A stretch of 64,000 nucleotides of DNA from Spirochaetota bacterium (lineage in GTDB: Bacteria > Spirochaetota > UBA4802 > UBA5550). A program made the position numbers and the translations under genes. Location: the NCBI GenBank assembly GCA_036848375.1, contig DAIUKG010000006.1, forward strand, positions 44,941 through 108,940. The letters run 5' to 3'. Position 1 is the stretch's first letter, and each line of letters starts with the position of its first letter. The notes beneath the pieces were generated by a model. The model was not told where the DNA came from. It was given only the letters and a program-made list of their open reading frames with translations, and made no database searches. This document shows positions 3,696 through 57,800 of this stretch, one piece after another.

Positions 3696-3774
3696 ACTAT
3701 TATTGAAACAGCAGGCGCAACCCGGCCTGTATGAGCCAGGCGTTGTCGAGCGAATATTTCACCCGGTACTCATC

Positions 3775-4644
3775 CTAGTATCTTTTAAACTCGCTTCTGC
3801 CGTAAATATATGACGCGCCGAACTGGTACCCGGCAAAAGCCACGAGGGCGATATTGCGGTGGATGTATGTGGAGATACGTTCGCCCGCGCGATGGTATTC
3901 ATAAAAGAGATTTTCTTTTTTGTTTTCCCTGCGGTTGAGCATGTACACGTCCTTGTCATAAGAATATTCCGTGCCCAGGATCAAAAACGAAAGCGGCCTG
4001 AACTCAAACGCGGTAAAGATTGACGCGACCGGAATATATCTGAACCGAAGGGTAAAATAGTCTTTCGGTTTCCAGACAAGCCGGGTTAACAACCCGAGGG
4101 TGAAGTCAACTTCATCATTTACAAACTTGTAACTGATCATGGGGATAGGTATGGGCAGGCCGATGTTGCGGGTTATCAGCGAAGAGTAGTTGACCCCGAA
4201 GCTGACCGAATGGGGCCCCTCCTGATAAATCTCATAGTACATCGTGGAAGTAATGGCAAAATCATCGAAACTTCTGAACGGCCTGTTGGTATTGTTGGAA
4301 AAACTGAAAAGAAAACTCACCTTGTCAAGATAAAAGCTGAAGGTCTCCTGTATCCGGTACAGCTCGACAGGCACAGGAATGTCCGTTTCGCGATTGGTGT
4401 AGGTAAAAAACAGATAGTTTTTGATTCTCGTGCCGCTGTTCACGTGAAACGTGTCAATGAACGAGGCGTCACAGGCATTGACATCCTCATCAGGGCCTTC
4501 ACTCTTGTGATACAGAAACGTGAGAATGTGGTCCGGCTGTTTTTCTTTTGGGGGGATGTTTTTGTTCTCGTCATCTGCCGTAACCCTGTGGGGAAAGAAA
4601 ATTATGCAGATGATCAGGGCTGTTGTGTAAAATATATGCTTCAT
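3775..4644 (-). CDS. hypothetical secreted protein, possibly an outer-membrane beta-barrel
   Basis: 289 aa from MKHIFYTTALIICIIFFPHRVTA (signal peptide). Alternating hydrophobic pattern with many aromatic residues. It ends ...GRSEFKRY. No family recognised. Confidence 0.5.
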   Translation of the reverse strand: MKHIFYTTALIICIIFFPHRVTADDENKNIPPKEKQPDHILTFLYHKSEGPDEDVNACDASFIDTFHVNSGTRIKNYLFFTYTNRETDIPVPVELYRIQETFSFYLDKVSFLFSFSNNTNRPFRSFDDFAITSTMYYEIYQEGPHSVSFGVNYSSLITRNIGLPIPIPMISYKFVNDEVDFTLGLLTRLVWKPKDYFTLRFRYIPVASIFTAFEFRPLSFLILGTEYSYDKDVYMLNRRENKKENLFYEYHRAGERISTYIHRNIALVAFAGYQFGASYIYGRSEFKRY

Positions 4645-5860: not shown

Positions 5861-8800
5861 CTACCAGTCAAACACGTCCTTGTCCCTGTTGTCATAAGCC
5901 GGGAATGATTTACTGATACTTGCAAAGGAATTGACCACCGAAATATCATCGATATCGATGACCTCGGTCGCTCCGGCAACCGTTATCGTTATCGCTTTCC
6001 ACAGGTACTTGCTGCCGGCGCCGCTCGGGAACGAGACCTCCCTGACCATGCCGTACTCGTTGTACACCCTCATGACCACATCAGAAGCATACCAGTTTGA
6101 CTCTGAGTAGTTGTGTACCGAGAACTTGTACACGCCGCCGGCATAATCGCCAACATTTTTGAAGATATTGATCGCCTCGGGCCCGTAGCCTTCGGTCGCG
6201 TCCTGCACCAGGCTCGTGGTCGAGCTGGTCCCGTTGGAATCTCCGCTTGAGCTGTAATACCCGCTGGTCACGGTCTCGTTGAACGACTTCTGGTTGCGGT
6301 AGAACACGTGGAACCGGTTGTTTGTCGGCCCGCCATAACTCGAATCCGTTTCCTGGACCGTATGGCTTGACGGCCCCACAACGTGCAGGTCAAGGTCCCG
6401 AGGATCTGATCCCCACTGCACGGTCACGCGTATCTGGTAGGGGGCGAGGTTCTGGCAGATCGCGATCCTTCCCTGTGCCTCGGCGCCGTCGCGGCCGTCG
6501 ACAACGACATTGTTCTTGGTAAAGGTGTAAAAACCGGATTTGGTCACGCGCAATGAATAGATCCCGGGGTCAACACTGGACATGGTGAAGGTCCCGGTTG
6601 AGGTTGTCGTGTACGTGAACTCGCTTACCTCGTCACCGCTGTAGTCAATGAGCTCAACGACTGCTCCTTCGACATTGTTTCCCCAGTTCGCGTCAACGAT
6701 CTGGCCGGTAATATTCGAAGCAGTGGCGCTGGTCTCGATAATGTAAATTGAACCGCAATCCGTTACTGCTCCATAGGTTACTGAAACGGAGTCCTTTTTA
6801 CCTGAATAGTATCCTGTTTTTTCAACCAGCAGGCTGTACCGGTTCGCGCCGATCGGAACGGTATCGGTAAAGCTGAATGAACCGTCGCTGAGCGTATCGT
6901 CAGTAGCGACAACGGTATCATCATCCGGGTCGTCAGGATCGTTGACGTCGATCAGCGAAACGGTCGCTGCTTCGATCATCTCGGAAGTGTTCAGGCCGTT
7001 CACCACGTGCCCGGTTATTGAGCCGACCACGTCAAGGCCGTCTGAACGATTTCCCCAGCCGCTCCAGTTCCCCAGGCTGTCGCTTACCCTGATGCGGGCG
7101 TAATACTGTGAACCGTCTTCGGTTGAAACCACGTACTGGTGGTGGCCCGCTTCGGTCACGCCGCCTTCGTATACAACACCTGAAAGGCTGAATGAATCAT
7201 CGGTTGAAACCTGGATTTCGGCTTCAGCTATGTCTGAATCGTCAGTCCAGTAAAAATCAACATAAAGGTCAGTGTTATATTCAACACCGTCGTCGTTGAC
7301 GTCCGGCACTGCCGGTGCTTCTTTGTCAACGGTCCAGGTGTAGGTCGCGATGTCCTCATCATCCACCCAGTTGCCCTGCGCGTCACGCCCTTTCACTTCA
7401 AGCACGTACTCGGTTTCAGGGTCGCCGGCAAGGTCGGTGAGAGTCAGGGCAGTCGCCACAGCCGTATCGGCTGACCAGCCAGTCCAGGTTGAACCGTCAG
7501 AGTAACGGTAACTGTAGTGTGAAACGTCAGTGCCGCTTACGCTGAAGGTAAAATCATCGTCAGCGGTGCTCCCGTTCTGGGGCACGGCAGGGTCAGGGGA
7601 TGTCATGGTCAGCGTTACCGACGCAGGCGGCGTCAGGTCAATGGACCATGAATATTCGGTGGCCATAAACTCAGGCTGCCAGTTCGCGCCGTCGTAGCCG
7701 ACTACCGCGATCTCATGGTCGCCTTCGGCCAGCGTTTCAACGATATAGTCGGCGATTTCATAGTCGGTGCTCCATGCGCCGCTGTCAATGCTGTACCTAT
7801 AATGGGTCACGCCGGTGCCGCCGACGCGGATGCCGGTCGAGCTGCTTCCGGTCGGGTCTGCCGGCTTGTTGAACAGTTCGGCAACGGGATACCCGGCAAG
7901 GCCCACGGTCCAGGTATGGGTCGTGGCGGATGACGGGTTCACCACGGAAGCGTCTCCCTGCCAGTTGCCCACGGCGTCTTTGCCGATCACTTCAAGATAA
8001 TAGGTCTCGTCAGGGGTCAGGTCGCTCAGTTCAATGTGCACTGAAACATCGGTCTCATCGCTCCATCCGTCAGCGTCGCCCCCGATCCATGAACCGCCGT
8101 CGATTTTGTACCGGTACTTGTAGGTTACGACCGAATCGCTCTCAGCGGTTTCGGCTTCAACCGTAATATCGGTAAAATTGAAAACACCGTCTTCAGGAAG
8201 GTCGCTCAGCACCGCGATCGGGGCAGTGACGTCCACGACCCAGGAACAGGATGTCGGGGATGAATCGCTCTGCCAGGTCCCGGCGCTGTTCAGGGCGATG
8301 ACGTCAACCTGGTATGATCCGTCTTCGAGGTCTTCAAGTGCGATGTGCTCCGATACCGCTGTCTGCGCGGACCACGATCCGCTGTTCACACGGTACTGGT
8401 ACGCAACGACATTCGTGCCGCCAACGGTAATGTCGGTTGTCTGTGATGCAGTGGATGATGCCGGTGTATTGGAAAGCACTGCCGTAGGGTCGGACGTATC
8501 GATCACCCATGAATACCACTGGGTCGTGTCCTCAAGGGGCTCTGAATACGGCGTTTCATTAAGGGCACGGTCAACACCGATCACGTAAAGGGTATAGGTC
8601 CCGTCACGGTCGAGCACCGCGCTCGTGAGGTTGATATCATCGCTCACCGGGTATCTTCCGGTCCAGGTTCCTTCATCGGTCTCGCCGCCGTAGGTGTAGT
8701 CCAGACGATATCGGTACCAGTACACATCATCCCCGCTCACCGCTATATTCGCGGTTGTCGTGTTCGTCGGGTCATTGGGTAAATTCGAAAGTATGATTGC

Positions 8801-50156: not shown

Positions 50157-51251
50157 CTATGCTTCAGCTAACTTGATCTCTTTGGCGGAATCGCCCTTCT
50201 CCTGTTTCGCCTCGCCTTTGCCGGTTTTGGCTTCGCGGCTGTCAGTGATGAGGCCCACTGCCTGTTTGACTTTCATCTCAACTTCGGCAGCGATTCTCGG
50301 GTTCTCCCTGATATAATTCTTCGCGTTCTCCCGGCCCTGGCCTATGCGCTCATCCCCGTAGGAAAACCAGGTGCCTGCTTTTTTAATGATATCGTATTTC
50401 ACGCCCATATCGAGAATGCCGCCTTCACGGGAAATGCCGCCGTTGAACATGATATCAAACTCGGCCTGCTTAAACGGAGGCGCGACCTTGTTCTTGACGA
50501 CTTTAACACGCACCCTGTTGCCGATGGCATCTTCGCCGCTTTTAATGGTTTCGATTCTGCGGATGTCAAGGCGCACTGAGGAATAAAACTTCAGGGCATT
50601 GCCGCCGGTCGTTGTTTCGGGAGAGCCGAACATGACGCCGATCTTGTGACGTATCTGGTTGATAAAAATGACGCAGGTCTTGGACTTGGCGATAACGCCG
50701 GTGAGTTTGCGCAGCGCCTGGCTCATGAGCCGCGCCTGGAGCCCCATGTGAGAATCGCCCATGTCGCCGTCAATCTCGGCCTTGGGCACCAGCGCCGCGA
50801 CCGAATCGATAACGATCACGTCAATCGCTCCCGAACGGACCAGGGCCTCGGTGATCTCCAGGGCCTCTTCGCCCGTGTCCGGCTGTGAAACCAGAAGCTC
50901 ATCGGTGTTCACCCCGAGTTTTGCCGCATAAACCGGGTCAAGGGCGTGTTCCGCGTCGACAAAGGCCGCGACCCCGCCGAGCTTCTGGGCTTCGCCCACG
51001 ATATGGAGAGTAAGTGTTGTTTTACCGCTTGATTCAGGTCCGTATATTTCCACAACGCGGCCGCGGGGAACACCGCCCAGGCCCAGGGCCACATCCAGTT
51101 CAATGGACCCGGTTGATATACAGGGGATCTGTATCCTGCTGGATTCATCCCCCAGTTTCATGATCGACCCCTTGCCGAACTGTTTTTCGATCTGCATTAT
51201 GGCAGACTCAAGGGCCTGGCTTCTCTGGTTCAGTTCCTTCTGCTCTGACAT
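50157..51251 (-). CDS. recA: recombinase RecA
   Basis: GPESSGKTT Walker [30 protein letters not shown]. Confidence 0.97.
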
Positions 51252-51499
51252 TGTTTTACCTCGCGTTAACCGTGTTTTACCTTATATACGAATGAAACTA
51301 CTCGATTTAAAAATTTTTTCGTATCCGGCTTAAAATCCGGAAAGAAGCCTGCTCCCGAACATATGGGCATCATCCTCTTCCCGGAGTCCCGTGATCTAAT
51401 GTCACATAATACCTGATCGGAATAAATATCAAGTAAAATTAGCAAAATACTTAAATTTTGTTAAGTATTTTGCTTTTTCATACCGGATCACGCTACGGT

Positions 51500-53083
51500 T
51501 TACAACGCCACGTTCTTGACCTTTTCCTTCAGCCGGTCAAGGCCCTTGCGGTATTCAAGCTTGTTCAGCGCATCGACATAGCAGAGGATCCCGGCAATCG
51601 TTATATCGATATGGATGCCGTTGCCGAACACCTTGTATTCGTCGCCATTGATGTTCTCGATGACCTCGGCCGACACTTCGGAGAGCGCGTCAGAGCCGCC
51701 GGTGATGGCCACGAGGTTAAAAGAGACCAGCCGCGCTTCGCTGCCGGTGATCTTTCTCACCGCGGTAATGCCCGCGTCAACGCCGCCGCTCCCGTGCGCG
51801 ACCTCAAAAACAACCTCATTGCCTTTGGCGCGGTCCTTGAGCGTAACCATGGTCATCGGGGGAGAATGCATACCGGTGGAAACCTGAATATTTTCGACCT
51901 TGAAGCGCCTCTTTTCATCCTCGCGGTACATCGACTCGCTGATAAGCGCGATGAGGTCTTCATCAAAGATCTCTTTCTTCTTGTCGGCCAGGGACTTGTA
52001 GTATTTGAAGAAGCGCTCCATTTCCTCGTGGTCCAGCTTAAAGCCCAGGGACTCGAGCCTGGACAGGATCGCGTGCCTTCCCGAATGCTTGCCCAGCACC
52101 AGAAGAGACTTCTTGATCCCGACATCCGCGGGCTTCATGATCTCGTAGGTCATGGAATTTTTCAGCAGGCCGTCCTGGTGGATACCCGATTCATGCGCGA
52201 ACGCGTTCGCCCCCACAATGGCCTTGTTCGGCTGCACCGACACGCCCGTTATCCTGGTGAGGAGCTTGCTCGTGGGCATGATCTGCTCGGTCCTGATGTC
52301 AGTGAACACGCCGAAAAAGTCACTGCGCGTCTTGATGCCCATCACGATCTCTTCCATCGCGGTGTTGCCCGCGCGCTCGCCGATACCGTTGACCGTGCAC
52401 TCGATCTGCCGCGCGCCCGCTTCAATGGCGGCGAGTGAATTGGCAACCGCCAGGCCGAGGTCGTTATGACAGTGCACCGAGATGATGGCCCGGTCAATGC
52501 CTGATACATGGGCGAAGAGGTGGCTGATGATCCGGTGAAACTCAGAGGGGACGGTATAGCCCACGGTATCGGGGATGTTTACCGTTGTCGCGCCCGCGTC
52601 AATCACTGCCTGGACCATCATGGTAAGAAAGTCAAGGTCGCTCCTGGTAGCGTCCATGGGCGAAAATTCCACGTCATCCACGTGGCTGCGGGCGCGTTTG
52701 ACCGCGGCGACCGCCATTTCGAGCACTTCATCCCTCGATTTTTTAAGCTGGTGTTCGATATGAATGTCAGAACTTGAAACAAAAGTATGGATGCGGGGAC
52801 GCTTGGCCTTCTCAATCGCCCGCGCCGCGGTATCGATGTCAGTGTTATTGGCCCTGGCAAGTCCGGCAACGGTGATGCCCCGCACCTTTTCTGCAATCCT
52901 GGCCACGGCCTCAAAGTCGCCGTCCGAGATAACGGGAAACCCCGCCTCGACAACATCCACCCCGAGCCGTGAAAGCTGTTCGGCAAAGATGATCTTCTCT
53001 TCTATATTCATGCTGAATCCCGGGGACTGTTCGCCGTCCCTGAGTGTCGTATCAAAAATAACTATTTTATTCTTTTTATTCAT
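51500..53083 (-). CDS. leuA: 2-isopropylmalate synthase (long form with C-terminal regulatory domain)
   Basis: FDTTLRDGEQSPG and HCHNDLGLAVANSLAAIEAGA. 527 aa. A Leu-rich leader lies upstream. Confidence 0.85.
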   Translation of the reverse strand: MNKKNKIVIFDTTLRDGEQSPGFSMNIEEKIIFAEQLSRLGVDVVEAGFPVISDGDFEAVARIAEKVRGITVAGLARANNTDIDTAARAIEKAKRPRIHTFVSSSDIHIEHQLKKSRDEVLEMAVAAVKRARSHVDDVEFSPMDATRSDLDFLTMMVQAVIDAGATTVNIPDTVGYTVPSEFHRIISHLFAHVSGIDRAIISVHCHNDLGLAVANSLAAIEAGARQIECTVNGIGERAGNTAMEEIVMGIKTRSDFFGVFTDIRTEQIMPTSKLLTRITGVSVQPNKAIVGANAFAHESGIHQDGLLKNSMTYEIMKPADVGIKKSLLVLGKHSGRHAILSRLESLGFKLDHEEMERFFKYYKSLADKKKEIFDEDLIALISESMYREDEKRRFKVENIQVSTGMHSPPMTMVTLKDRAKGNEVVFEVAHGSGGVDAGITAVRKITGSEARLVSFNLVAITGGSDALSEVSAEVIENINGDEYKVFGNGIHIDITIAGILCYVDALNKLEYRKGLDRLKEKVKNVAL

Positions 53084-53191
53084 GGTTTTCTCCTCTTTAT
53101 CACAGAATGCGGCCGAAACGGCCGGTAAAAACTATTCCCGTGAAAGAGAGCCAAGCATACATGGGAAAAACATCCCCGCACCTCCTGATAC

Positions 53192-53226
53192 AAAAAAGGC
53201 CGTCAGAATCTGGTTCGTGACGGCCT
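53192..53226 (-). terminator. attenuator/terminator hairpin in the leuA leader (AAGGCCGTCA-N12-TGACGGCCTT + UUUUUU on the minus strand)
   Basis: 10-bp perfect stem then a T6 run, ~110 nt upstream of the leuA start. The loop is complementary to the end of the leader ORF. Confidence 0.45.
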
Positions 53227-53252
53227 TACAGTATATTCGTTTTCTGTTGACA

Positions 53253-53330
53253 TCACGAACCAGCGCCAGGTTTTAGCAGGCTAAGAAGGAGGCCTAATAA
53301 AAGGGTGCTGTTGTGTTCGAATGACGTCAT
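53253..53330 (-). CDS. candidate leucine-rich leader peptide MTSFEHNSTLLLGLLLSLLKPGAGS (25 aa)
   Basis: 8 Leu in a 10-codon stretch. The stop codon is embedded in CTGGTTCGTGA, which is perfectly complementary to TCACGAACCAG in the downstream terminator. Confidence 0.4.
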   Translation of the reverse strand: MTSFEHNSTLLLGLLLSLLKPGAGS

Positions 53331-53443
53331 GATGTATTATCGTAAATTTTAAAAAAGTGAAATCAACCTATAAAGTATATCGATCTGTGTCAATATAATA
53401 TTTCAGTTTTTTCTAAAAAAGATGTAATTATTGGGGATGTTAT

Positions 53444-53507
53444 GTGCTCTGACCCCAGGCAGGTTGGAAACCTGCCCCTCTAGACCACATTATTGTGCTC
53501 TGACCCC
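53444..53507. repeat. intergenic repeat module: 2x GTGCTCTGACCCC flanking the GNRA-loop hairpin GGCAGGTT-GGAA-AACCTGCC
   Basis: Direct reading of the sequence. The same module occurs at 57661-57800. Confidence 0.8.
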
Positions 53508-53595
53508 AAAATCCCACCTTAACAACAGGCTTATATTCGACCATATAAAAATCGCTTGACGTTACTATAGAACATACAACAATTTCGCAGACACT

Positions 53596-54441
53596 ATGCC
53601 CCGGAGCCCAGAAATGAACAAAGTCTCTGCAGTTATCGCTTCACTTTTCATGCTTATCACAGTAACCGTATCCCTTGCACAGGAACAACAACCCAGCACC
53701 GAGCTAAAAGAAGAAATAACTACTGTCGAAATCGGGGAACACGGGAACACCGCAGGCACTCCTCAGACAAAAAATGAAAACACGGTTAAAATCCACTCTG
53801 TCCCGGGGGAAAAATGCATCACTGATACCGGCGACCTGCTCCTGAGCATAGGTAATTTTCTGGCCTTTAGGAGTTTTTCAGGTGAGCTTTATGAAGATTA
53901 TAATAAGGATTTTTCCTTCAATCCTTCGGTAAAGATGTCTCTTGAAGTATTCTTATATAAAGGACTGGCCCTTGGCGGAATAATAAATTTTGATTTTAAA
54001 AATTACAGCGGTTATTATGAATCAACATGGGGATGGTTCTATGAAACCAACACCGACGACTTTTCATTTCAGATTGGACCCTCTCTGAATTACTACCTTA
54101 ACTTTTATAACAAATATATCCCGTATTTCGGCATAAATTTTTTATATTCTCAGAGGGGAATAGAGATTAAAACAAAAGAAGACGATGATGTTGTCCTTTC
54201 ATACAAGCGGCATTATTTTAACTATGAAGGGTCGATTGGTTTCATGTATGTCATAAAAACATACTTGGGCATCTATATCAACTACACATACACGATCAGC
54301 ATGAGTAAAGTGGATGATGAAAAAATACGATCGGATGCTACAGATGCTTTATTGGCAGATATAAAATACTATCATAAAGAACACTGGGGCTACTGCCATA
54401 CTCTGAGCATCGGATTTAAAGTTTTTTTCGATATACTCTGA
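53596..54441 (+). CDS. hypothetical outer-membrane beta-barrel protein with signal peptide
   Basis: MNKVSAVIASLFMLITVTVSLA signal. Tyr/Gly-rich alternating strands. Confidence 0.45.
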   Translation: MPRSPEMNKVSAVIASLFMLITVTVSLAQEQQPSTELKEEITTVEIGEHGNTAGTPQTKNENTVKIHSVPGEKCITDTGDLLLSIGNFLAFRSFSGELYEDYNKDFSFNPSVKMSLEVFLYKGLALGGIINFDFKNYSGYYESTWGWFYETNTDDFSFQIGPSLNYYLNFYNKYIPYFGINFLYSQRGIEIKTKEDDDVVLSYKRHYFNYEGSIGFMYVIKTYLGIYINYTYTISMSKVDDEKIRSDATDALLADIKYYHKEHWGYCHTLSIGFKVFFDIL

Positions 54442-57580: not shown

Positions 57581-57660
57581 ACTAACATCCCCGCGCCTGG
57601 ATTTTCAGCAACAGGGTTCACTTAAGCGCGAGGAGGATTATTCGTCAACCGACATTTTTA

Positions 57661-57800
57661 GGGGCTGGCTGGGAACCTGCCCCTGCAGGCCCCATATATT
57701 ATGCTCTGACCCCCTGAAACGGTGCTCTGACCCCCGATTATCCGCACGAATGATTTGCTCTGACCCCAGGGCAGGTTGAAAACCTGCCCCTACGGACCCC
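57661..57800. repeat. intergenic repeat module: 3x (G)TGCTCTGACCCC plus GNRA hairpin GGCAGGTT-GAAA-AACCTGCC and a related GGGAACCTGCCCCTGCAGG
   Basis: Direct reading. It lies in the divergent promoter region between the KS gene and the 57978 gene. Confidence 0.8.

Follow-up and report, generated by a model that had tools for sequence, protein, structure and literature searches.

Leader-peptide control of leuA has been described in E. coli and Streptococcus (PMC5314783) and in S. aureus (PMC5794164), and Leu-rich leader ORFs are part of the actinobacterial LEU element (PMC1262725). An earlier note on the DNA analyzed here, which proposed attenuation upstream of leuA, held that this logic is known mainly from enterobacteria; these examples show that this understates its spread. 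In the leuL leader of E. coli and Salmonella (Rfam Leu_leader, RF00512), a short ORF with a run of Leu codons controls 2-isopropylmalate synthase, and the position of the ribosome sets transcription by way of mutually exclusive protector, pre-emptor, and terminator helices (PMC5314783). The LeuA leaders of Streptococcus (Millman et al., PASIFIC; PMC5314783) and the ilv-leu leader of S. aureus (PMC5794164) combine a Leu-rich uORF with a terminator and an antiterminator at BCAA genes. The actinobacterial LEU element also has a Leu-run uORF before leuA, but folds as a pseudoknot, in whose base stem the Leu codons are paired to the Shine-Dalgarno (SD) sequence of leuA, and has no classical terminator (Seliverstov et al. 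2005, PMC1262725). Our literature search found no description of leader peptides or attenuation at leuA in spirochaetes or Leptospira; one paper mentioning Spirochaetales covers leader-gene spacing statistics only.

The locus described here lies on the minus strand of the window, by which we mean the whole 64-kb stretch of spirochaete DNA that was analyzed. It shares the general plan of leuL, with no detectable homology to it in sequence or structure: a search of the whole window against Rfam at the gathering score returned no family, and a search of 53000..53600 at E ≤ 10 returned no leader family, so that neither Leu_leader (RF00512) nor Leu/phe leader (RF01743) was matched, and no T-box leader was matched at either threshold. 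The spirochaete leader carries eight interrupted Leu codons (LLLxLLLxLL), whereas leuL carries four consecutive ones. Its region 1 lies at the start of the ORF and includes the start codon, while that of leuL is the Leu-codon region; the antiterminator strand contains its stop codon; it would control a monocistronic leuA instead of leuABCD; and, unlike in leuL, a second mini-ORF (uORF2) lies behind the terminator. The Streptococcus and S. aureus leaders belong to a different phylum, are unrelated in sequence, and evolved independently, the principle recurring without sequence similarity. Their anti-antiterminator overlaps the Leu codons (PMC5314783), whereas in the spirochaete leader these codons lie between regions 1 and 2. 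Compared with the LEU element, the spirochaete leader has a strong terminator, and its Leu codons are unpaired with the leuA SD in a fold of the full 5′ UTR. Finally, the mgtM and mgtP ORFs of Salmonella mgtCBR (PMC3641672) offer a precedent for two successive short ORFs in one 5′ leader, each apparently read by ribosomes; those ORFs each have an alternative stem-loop and respond to different signals, whereas both spirochaete ORFs carry Leu codons.

A Leu-rich ORF and alternative RNA helices upstream of leuA

The following features of the window make up the leader and its gene:

51500..53083, minus: leuA, 2-isopropylmalate synthase, 527 aa (NCBIfam NF002086, 731 bits against a cut-off of 532)
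53363..53391, minus: putative sigma-70-type promoter, with −35 TTGACA at 53391..53386, a 17-nt spacer, and −10 TAGGTT at 53368..53363
53330..53253, minus: leader ORF of 25 codons plus UGA, with translation MTSFEHNSTLLLGLLLSLLKPGAGS and 8 Leu
53274..53303, minus: putative regulatory Leu codons, eight in codons 10-19 (CUU UUA UUA. CUC CUU CUU. CUG CUA)
53315..53330, minus: region 1, 5′ strand of the anti-antiterminator, AUGACGUCAUUCGAAC, comprising the start codon and first codons (16 nt; MFE folds)
53248..53263, minus: region 2, CUGGUUCGUGAUGUCA, which holds the leader UGA (53255..53253) and has region 1 or region 3 as alternative partners
53210..53222, minus: region 3, CGUCACGAACCAG, inner 5′ arm and loop of the terminator, forming a 13-bp antiterminator with 53263..53251
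53227..53192, minus: intrinsic terminator (regions 3:4), with a 10-bp stem, a 3-bp upper stem, and U6 (−18.1 kcal/mol, z = −6.7)

The earlier note had described a 25-codon Leu-rich ORF whose stop codon falls inside a stretch perfectly complementary to a downstream hairpin, and translation of 53330..53253 (minus strand) bears this out. The 11-nt complementarity is exact as given, CTGGTTCGTGA (53263..53253) being the reverse complement of TCACGAACCAG (53220..53210) on the minus strand. It moreover extends through the stop codon, with CUGGUUCGUGAUG (53263..53251) pairing CGUCACGAACCAG (53222..53210) over 13 bp with one G-U. The 10-bp GC-rich hairpin with U6 that the note placed before leuA was also found: its main stem pairs AAGGCCGUCA (53227..53218) with UGACGGCCUU (53205..53196), its inner pairing is GAA/UUC, and its U6 ends at 53192, leaving 109 nt to leuA. 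A simple terminator scanner missed this hairpin because of its loop rule of 3-8 nt. The overlap of antiterminator and terminator had been counted as a weakness, at only 3 bp of the stem; this was overstated, because the 13-bp pairing takes in 5 nt of the main 10-bp stem together with all 3 bp of the upper one.

Folding yielded the mutually exclusive structures that the note had anticipated. The antiterminator hairpin, folded as far as the loop, reached −24.2 kcal/mol (z = −4.25, with 1 of 200 shuffles equal) and exceeds the terminator in stability in the window. Region 1 pairs with GUUCGUGAUGUCA around the stop codon (53260..53248; MFE folds), and a fold of the entire leader ORF gave this 1:2 structure at −30 kcal/mol (z = −5.0). 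The window holds all four segments of a classical attenuator.

With regard to expression of the leader, TTGACA lies 55-65 nt 5′ of the leader AUG in most related loci, and this promoter element is kept among the window and the related loci L081 and L001. We infer the −10 element TAGGTT and the transcription start of the leader from sequence. No recognizable SD was found 5′ of the leader AUG in the window (53331..53356, minus strand), and the leader ORFs of L081 and L001 likewise have none; the SDs of leuA and uORF2 are strong. AAGGA- or GGGAG-like motifs precede the leader AUG in many other family members. A leaderless mRNA beginning at the leader AUG, with GATAAT as its −10 element, was considered and rejected because of the conserved upstream TTGACA and these SD-like motifs in many relatives.

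The leuA gene is monocistronic, being followed by recA (TIGR02012 match), map, and folE2 instead of leuBCD (window 50157..53083, minus strand), and the 96%-identical L081 contig has the same gene order at leuA. The gene 5′ of the leader region is divergent, so the terminator serves no preceding gene. When both strands of the 64-kb window were scanned, the leuA leader was the sole Leu-run mini-ORF with a downstream terminator; one further match was a weak Ile-run ORF. Separately, we observed a dispersed repeat in two intergenic regions of the window (53443..53507 and 57660..57800, minus strand), in which copies of GGGGUCAGAGCACA adjoin a GGGGCAGGUU(U/C)C(A/C)A(A/G)CC(U/A)GCC hairpin. It has 7 matches at ≤2 mismatches against 0.22 expected by chance, and from its sequence it looks REP- or MITE-like.

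Distribution and conservation of the leader family

Relatives were collected by a LeuA protein scan with one genome per species, which gave 28 Spirochaetota or Leptospirales MAGs (68-83% identity) and, at 52-57% identity, 52 loci outside that group, most of them from Desulfobacterota and Nitrospirota. The closest LeuA protein matches were all from uncultured Spirochaetota. A Leu-rich ORF of 20-30 codons with the motif LLLxLLL is present 100-400 nt 5′ of leuA in all 27 spirochaete genome loci having upstream DNA. At the 52 non-spirochaete leuA loci we sought the same leader and found none, merely 3 weak chance ORFs. As an independent sample, metagenome contigs were collected with the pattern GTGATGYC...GCCGTCAC...GTGRCGGCYTTTT, which comprises the stop region and terminator only. 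A Leu-rich ORF terminates at the patterned UGA in 26 of these 26 loci, and leuA (66-78% identity) lies 25-400 nt downstream in every one. The equivalent leader ORFs span 20-32 codons throughout both samples (27/27 genome loci and 26/26 metagenome loci), and the downstream gene is leuA in 54 of the 54 loci carrying the leader element. A covariance model (R1) gave exactly one match per spirochaete locus, at 55-87 bits, and nothing significant on the non-spirochaete loci.

Conservation at the nucleotide level is strong in the terminator and in the 1:2 and 2:3 helices (GCCGUCAC, GUGAUG). The stop codon is always UGA within GUGA, which is invariant in the 28 genome-derived sequences, and all 28 have a terminator, its hairpin at −18 to −27 kcal/mol and followed by a U-run. 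The Leu-run region is part of no conserved helix. Conservation of the Leu run in relatives, on which the earlier note had made its proposal depend, was found across 49 distinct leaders: Leu accounts for 33% of residues, or 8.4 Leu per leader, and the densest 10-codon window has a median of 8 Leu across the family. All six Leu codons are in use in these leaders (CUU 110, CUG 75, CUC 69, CUA 61, UUA 55, UUG 41). This free use of synonymous codons indicates, at the level of sequence, that selection acts on leucine decoding rather than on the RNA sequence.

Pairing of the two competing helices was then assessed in a MAFFT alignment (A1) and in a model-based alignment (A5). The latter was fitted to the terminator alone and therefore carries no bias toward the antiterminator. 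The counts below were set against slid-partner controls, and the shuffle controls for covariation take no account of phylogeny:

Antiterminator, alignment A1, 27 distinct sequences: 85.8% of cells paired, against 28-50% in slid-partner controls; 5 pairs changed on both sides
Antiterminator, alignment A5, 50 distinct sequences: 89.4% of cells paired, against 28-49% in slid-partner controls; 6 pairs changed on both sides
Terminator, alignment A1, 27 distinct sequences: 97.8% of cells paired, against 19-64% in slid-partner controls; 4 pairs changed on both sides

For example, one C-G pair in A5 is replaced by U-A in 10 sequences. For the 1:2 duplex, cognate strands paired with a mean of −17.0 kcal/mol, compared with −11.0 ± 0.44 kcal/mol when region 1 was shuffled and −13.4 kcal/mol for non-cognate pairs. 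These data show directly the ORF, its three alternative helices, how those helices are conserved and covary, and the association of the element with leuA alone.

Folding under ribosome constraints

We folded the leaders with ribosomes placed as modelled footprints, rather than at measured positions. Full transcripts without a ribosome formed the terminator in 28 of 28 sequences and the 1:2 helix in 25 of 28, and with a modelled ribosome on the stop codon the terminator again formed in 28 of 28. Transcripts were also cut just before the 3′ arm of the terminator, the point at which the choice between the two helices falls. Here an antiterminator of ≥7 bp formed in 43 of 49 leaders when the ribosome sat on the run's first Leu codon, and in 0 of 49 when it sat on the stop codon. 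These modelled folds agree with the expectation in the earlier note that a stall at the Leu codons frees the antiterminator and that a ribosome at the stop codon masks it. The last Leu of the run lies a median of 8 codons ahead of the stop.

At equilibrium, with the ribosome at the first Leu, the antiterminator wins in 4 of 28 sequences, the window included, and the terminator stays the MFE structure in the other 24. We therefore rejected equilibrium folding as proof of the switch. The note had asked whether the antiterminator can compete with the terminator at all: in the window it can (−24.2 against −18.1 kcal/mol), but in 24 of the 28 relatives it does not at equilibrium. Since the terminator is favored there despite a stalled ribosome, the switch must be kinetic in most relatives. 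The switch of the E. coli trp attenuator is likewise kinetic and not an equilibrium one. Because region 1 is upstream of the Leu run, a ribosome that stalls late leaves it physically uncovered. That such a ribosome would still exclude the 1:2 helix is argued on steric or topological grounds, or by invoking a second ribosome behind it.

Proposed mechanism and alternative explanations

Together, these results lead us to propose that the leuA leader is a classical ribosome-mediated transcription attenuator tuned to the supply of charged tRNA-Leu, a reading to which we give a probability of roughly 0.85 on the basis of sequence comparison and modelled folds. Transcription would start ~25 nt 5′ of the 25-codon leader ORF. 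When leucine is plentiful, the ribosome on this ORF would reach the UGA inside region 2 (CUGGUUCGUGAUG) and cover that strand; region 3 would then pair with region 4, forming the terminator with its U6, and RNA polymerase would halt 109 nt before leuA. With scarce Leu-tRNA, the ribosome would stall among the eight Leu codons (codons 10-19), covering or sterically blocking region 1 and leaving region 2 free. Region 2 would pair with the emerging region 3, the terminator would be prevented, and leuA would be transcribed. Without translation, region 1 would pair with region 2, and termination would be the default. We infer the ribosome positions, the kinetics, and the response to leucine from these models.

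Every testable sequence-level prediction of the leu-leader model was borne out. The locus has the features of the attenuator class: a Leu-enriched ORF, an intrinsic terminator, a covarying antiterminator, the geometry of stop and stall, a 1:2 helix, and the cognate gene. The classical leu-leader logic put forward in the earlier note is accordingly the reading that the conserved Leu run, the conserved and covarying terminator and antiterminator, and the identity of the gene as leuA support.

We considered three other explanations. The element might be a riboregulator that works through structure alone, recognized by a protein or small ligand, or a constitutive terminator, with the Leu-rich ORF incidental. 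The strong nucleotide-level conservation of the terminator and of the 1:2 and 2:3 helices would suit such an element, as would the want of a clear SD before the leader ORF in the window. It would leave unexplained, however, that each of 49 distinct sequences has an AUG ORF, 20-32 codons long, with its end at the same UGA, and that a third of the encoded residues are Leu encoded by six interchangeable codons, which points to selection on decoding. The Leu run also lies outside any conserved helix, and no riboswitch or T-box in Rfam was matched. We regard this explanation as very unlikely. It is less probable still that the mini-ORF encodes a functional small hydrophobic peptide with a terminator of its own, leuA being expressed from a separate downstream promoter; we give this idea hardly any weight. 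The segment LLLGLLLSLL is indeed hydrophobic and conserved in outline, but the peptide is poorly conserved outside the Leu run and the C-terminal residues that the helices dictate, and the element is found before leuA alone (54/54 loci). Covariation of the 2:3 helix would have no purpose in a plain small-protein gene, and the gap of just 24-50 nt between terminator and leuA in several relatives would hardly accommodate a promoter.

The remaining explanation, that the terminated leader of ~165 nt also acts in trans as a small RNA, is compatible with attenuation in cis. Small RNAs derived from attenuators are documented, with rnTrpL in Sinorhizobium as an example (PMC6614838), and the whole leader fold is very stable (−58.7 kcal/mol, z = −4.85). 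Against this, the data indicate no trans target, and the three overlapping helices already explain the strong nucleotide conservation; we consider an additional role of this kind unlikely. Attenuation in cis, tuned to charged tRNA-Leu, is the reading we retain for the leader.

A second mini-ORF between the terminator and leuA

Two further features of the window lie between the terminator and leuA:

53132..53185, minus: uORF2 module, with a perfect SD, GGAGGUG, at 53185..53179, an AUG hairpin at 53177..53163, and the ORF MFFPCMLGSLSRE plus stop at 53173..53132
53150..53140 with 53103..53090, minus: lineage-specific helix between an anti-SD in uORF2, CUCUCUUUCAC, and the leuA SD region, GUGAUAAAGAGGAG (MFE folds)

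The uORF2 module is present in ~38 of 54 loci (~70%), as a single copy and always between the terminator and leuA; further copies include those in L001 (3865-3906), L011 (2165-2207), and L018 (3765-3807), among others. In loci without the module, the distance from terminator to leuA is short. Its consensus is M-x-F-P-x-x-L, often in an ORF of just 7-9 codons, and one subgroup has a longer ORF with a start further upstream and the same frame, ...CP(L/W)LLG. The seventh codon, at 53155..53153 in the window (minus strand), encodes Leu; this is the sole invariant at the coding level, and length changes that offset one another hold it in frame. Nucleotides 19-20 counted from the AUG are C-U in 30 of 30 distinct copies, and the wobble position is free (U 18, A 10, C 2). 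Spacing from AUG to Leu is fixed at 18 nt though the position of the hairpin moves by −1 to +1 nt, and in the L087 variant the Leu is displaced by exactly one codon. The AUG hairpin shows modest covariation. Judging from these sequence patterns, uORF2 is apparently translated and conserves Leu at codon 7.

In the window, L081, and L001, the anti-SD lies directly after Leu7 and has the leuA SD as its pairing partner; L001 retains the helix with different bases (CAUCCUC/GAGGAUG). Conservation of this helix across the wider family was not found. With the footprint of a ribosome paused at Leu7 masked, the leuA initiation region of the window became more accessible (0.80, up from 0.52), and such unmasking holds in the window and a few other loci. 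As a family-wide feature it was rejected: across 29 loci, the unpaired probability changed only from 0.64 to 0.66, with control masks at 0.68. We also sought a conserved alternative structure for uORF2 and found none. A further idea, that GGAGG of the uORF2 SD pairs with a CCUCC within the Leu run, was rejected because CCUCC, read by eye, is not conserved.

A second terminator after uORF2 was likewise rejected as a general feature, being present in L088 and L095 only. In L088 (~6700-6725 of the oriented sequence, and the same in L095), a terminator-like hairpin, GGCACGAGGUGUGCC, followed by U5 lies after uORF2 and, in that lineage, may act as a further step of attenuation. Three loci carry long GC-rich inverted-repeat insertions between uORF2 and leuA: L018 (~3830-3960), L027 (~3720-3990), and L096. 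The insertions are MITE-like, that of L027 holding two copies of UAUUCGGGUGAGAAAUCUGUUU in the 5′ UTR, and they lengthen the 5′ UTR to 250-400 nt with the attenuator and uORF2 both intact.

We tentatively suggest that the leuA 5′ leader of this clade could be a two-stage leucine sensor, in which the attenuator is followed by uORF2 with a pause at Leu7 as a second checkpoint, though we think this somewhat doubtful. If it is true, the Leu7 pause would represent a type of checkpoint without a described precedent at leuA. In the sub-lineage of the window, the pause would make the leuA SD accessible; in other members, it might instead hide an entry site for Rho or stabilize the mRNA.

Significance

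The leader is a new sequence family of a known mechanism, ribosome-mediated attenuation, and apparently a further case in which the same attenuation logic evolved independently. It would extend leader-peptide attenuation of leucine biosynthesis to the Spirochaetota, in an uncultured Leptospirales-like clade. As an RNA family it is new, well populated, and absent from Rfam; it comprises 50 or more distinct members and has a covariance model that works. As predicted from sequence and modelled folds, the leader would be a compact natural leucine-responsive switch, and it would provide an annotation rule for these MAGs. Of all its parts, only the second mini-ORF, with its Leu codon, could offer a new lesson on the construction of such leaders.
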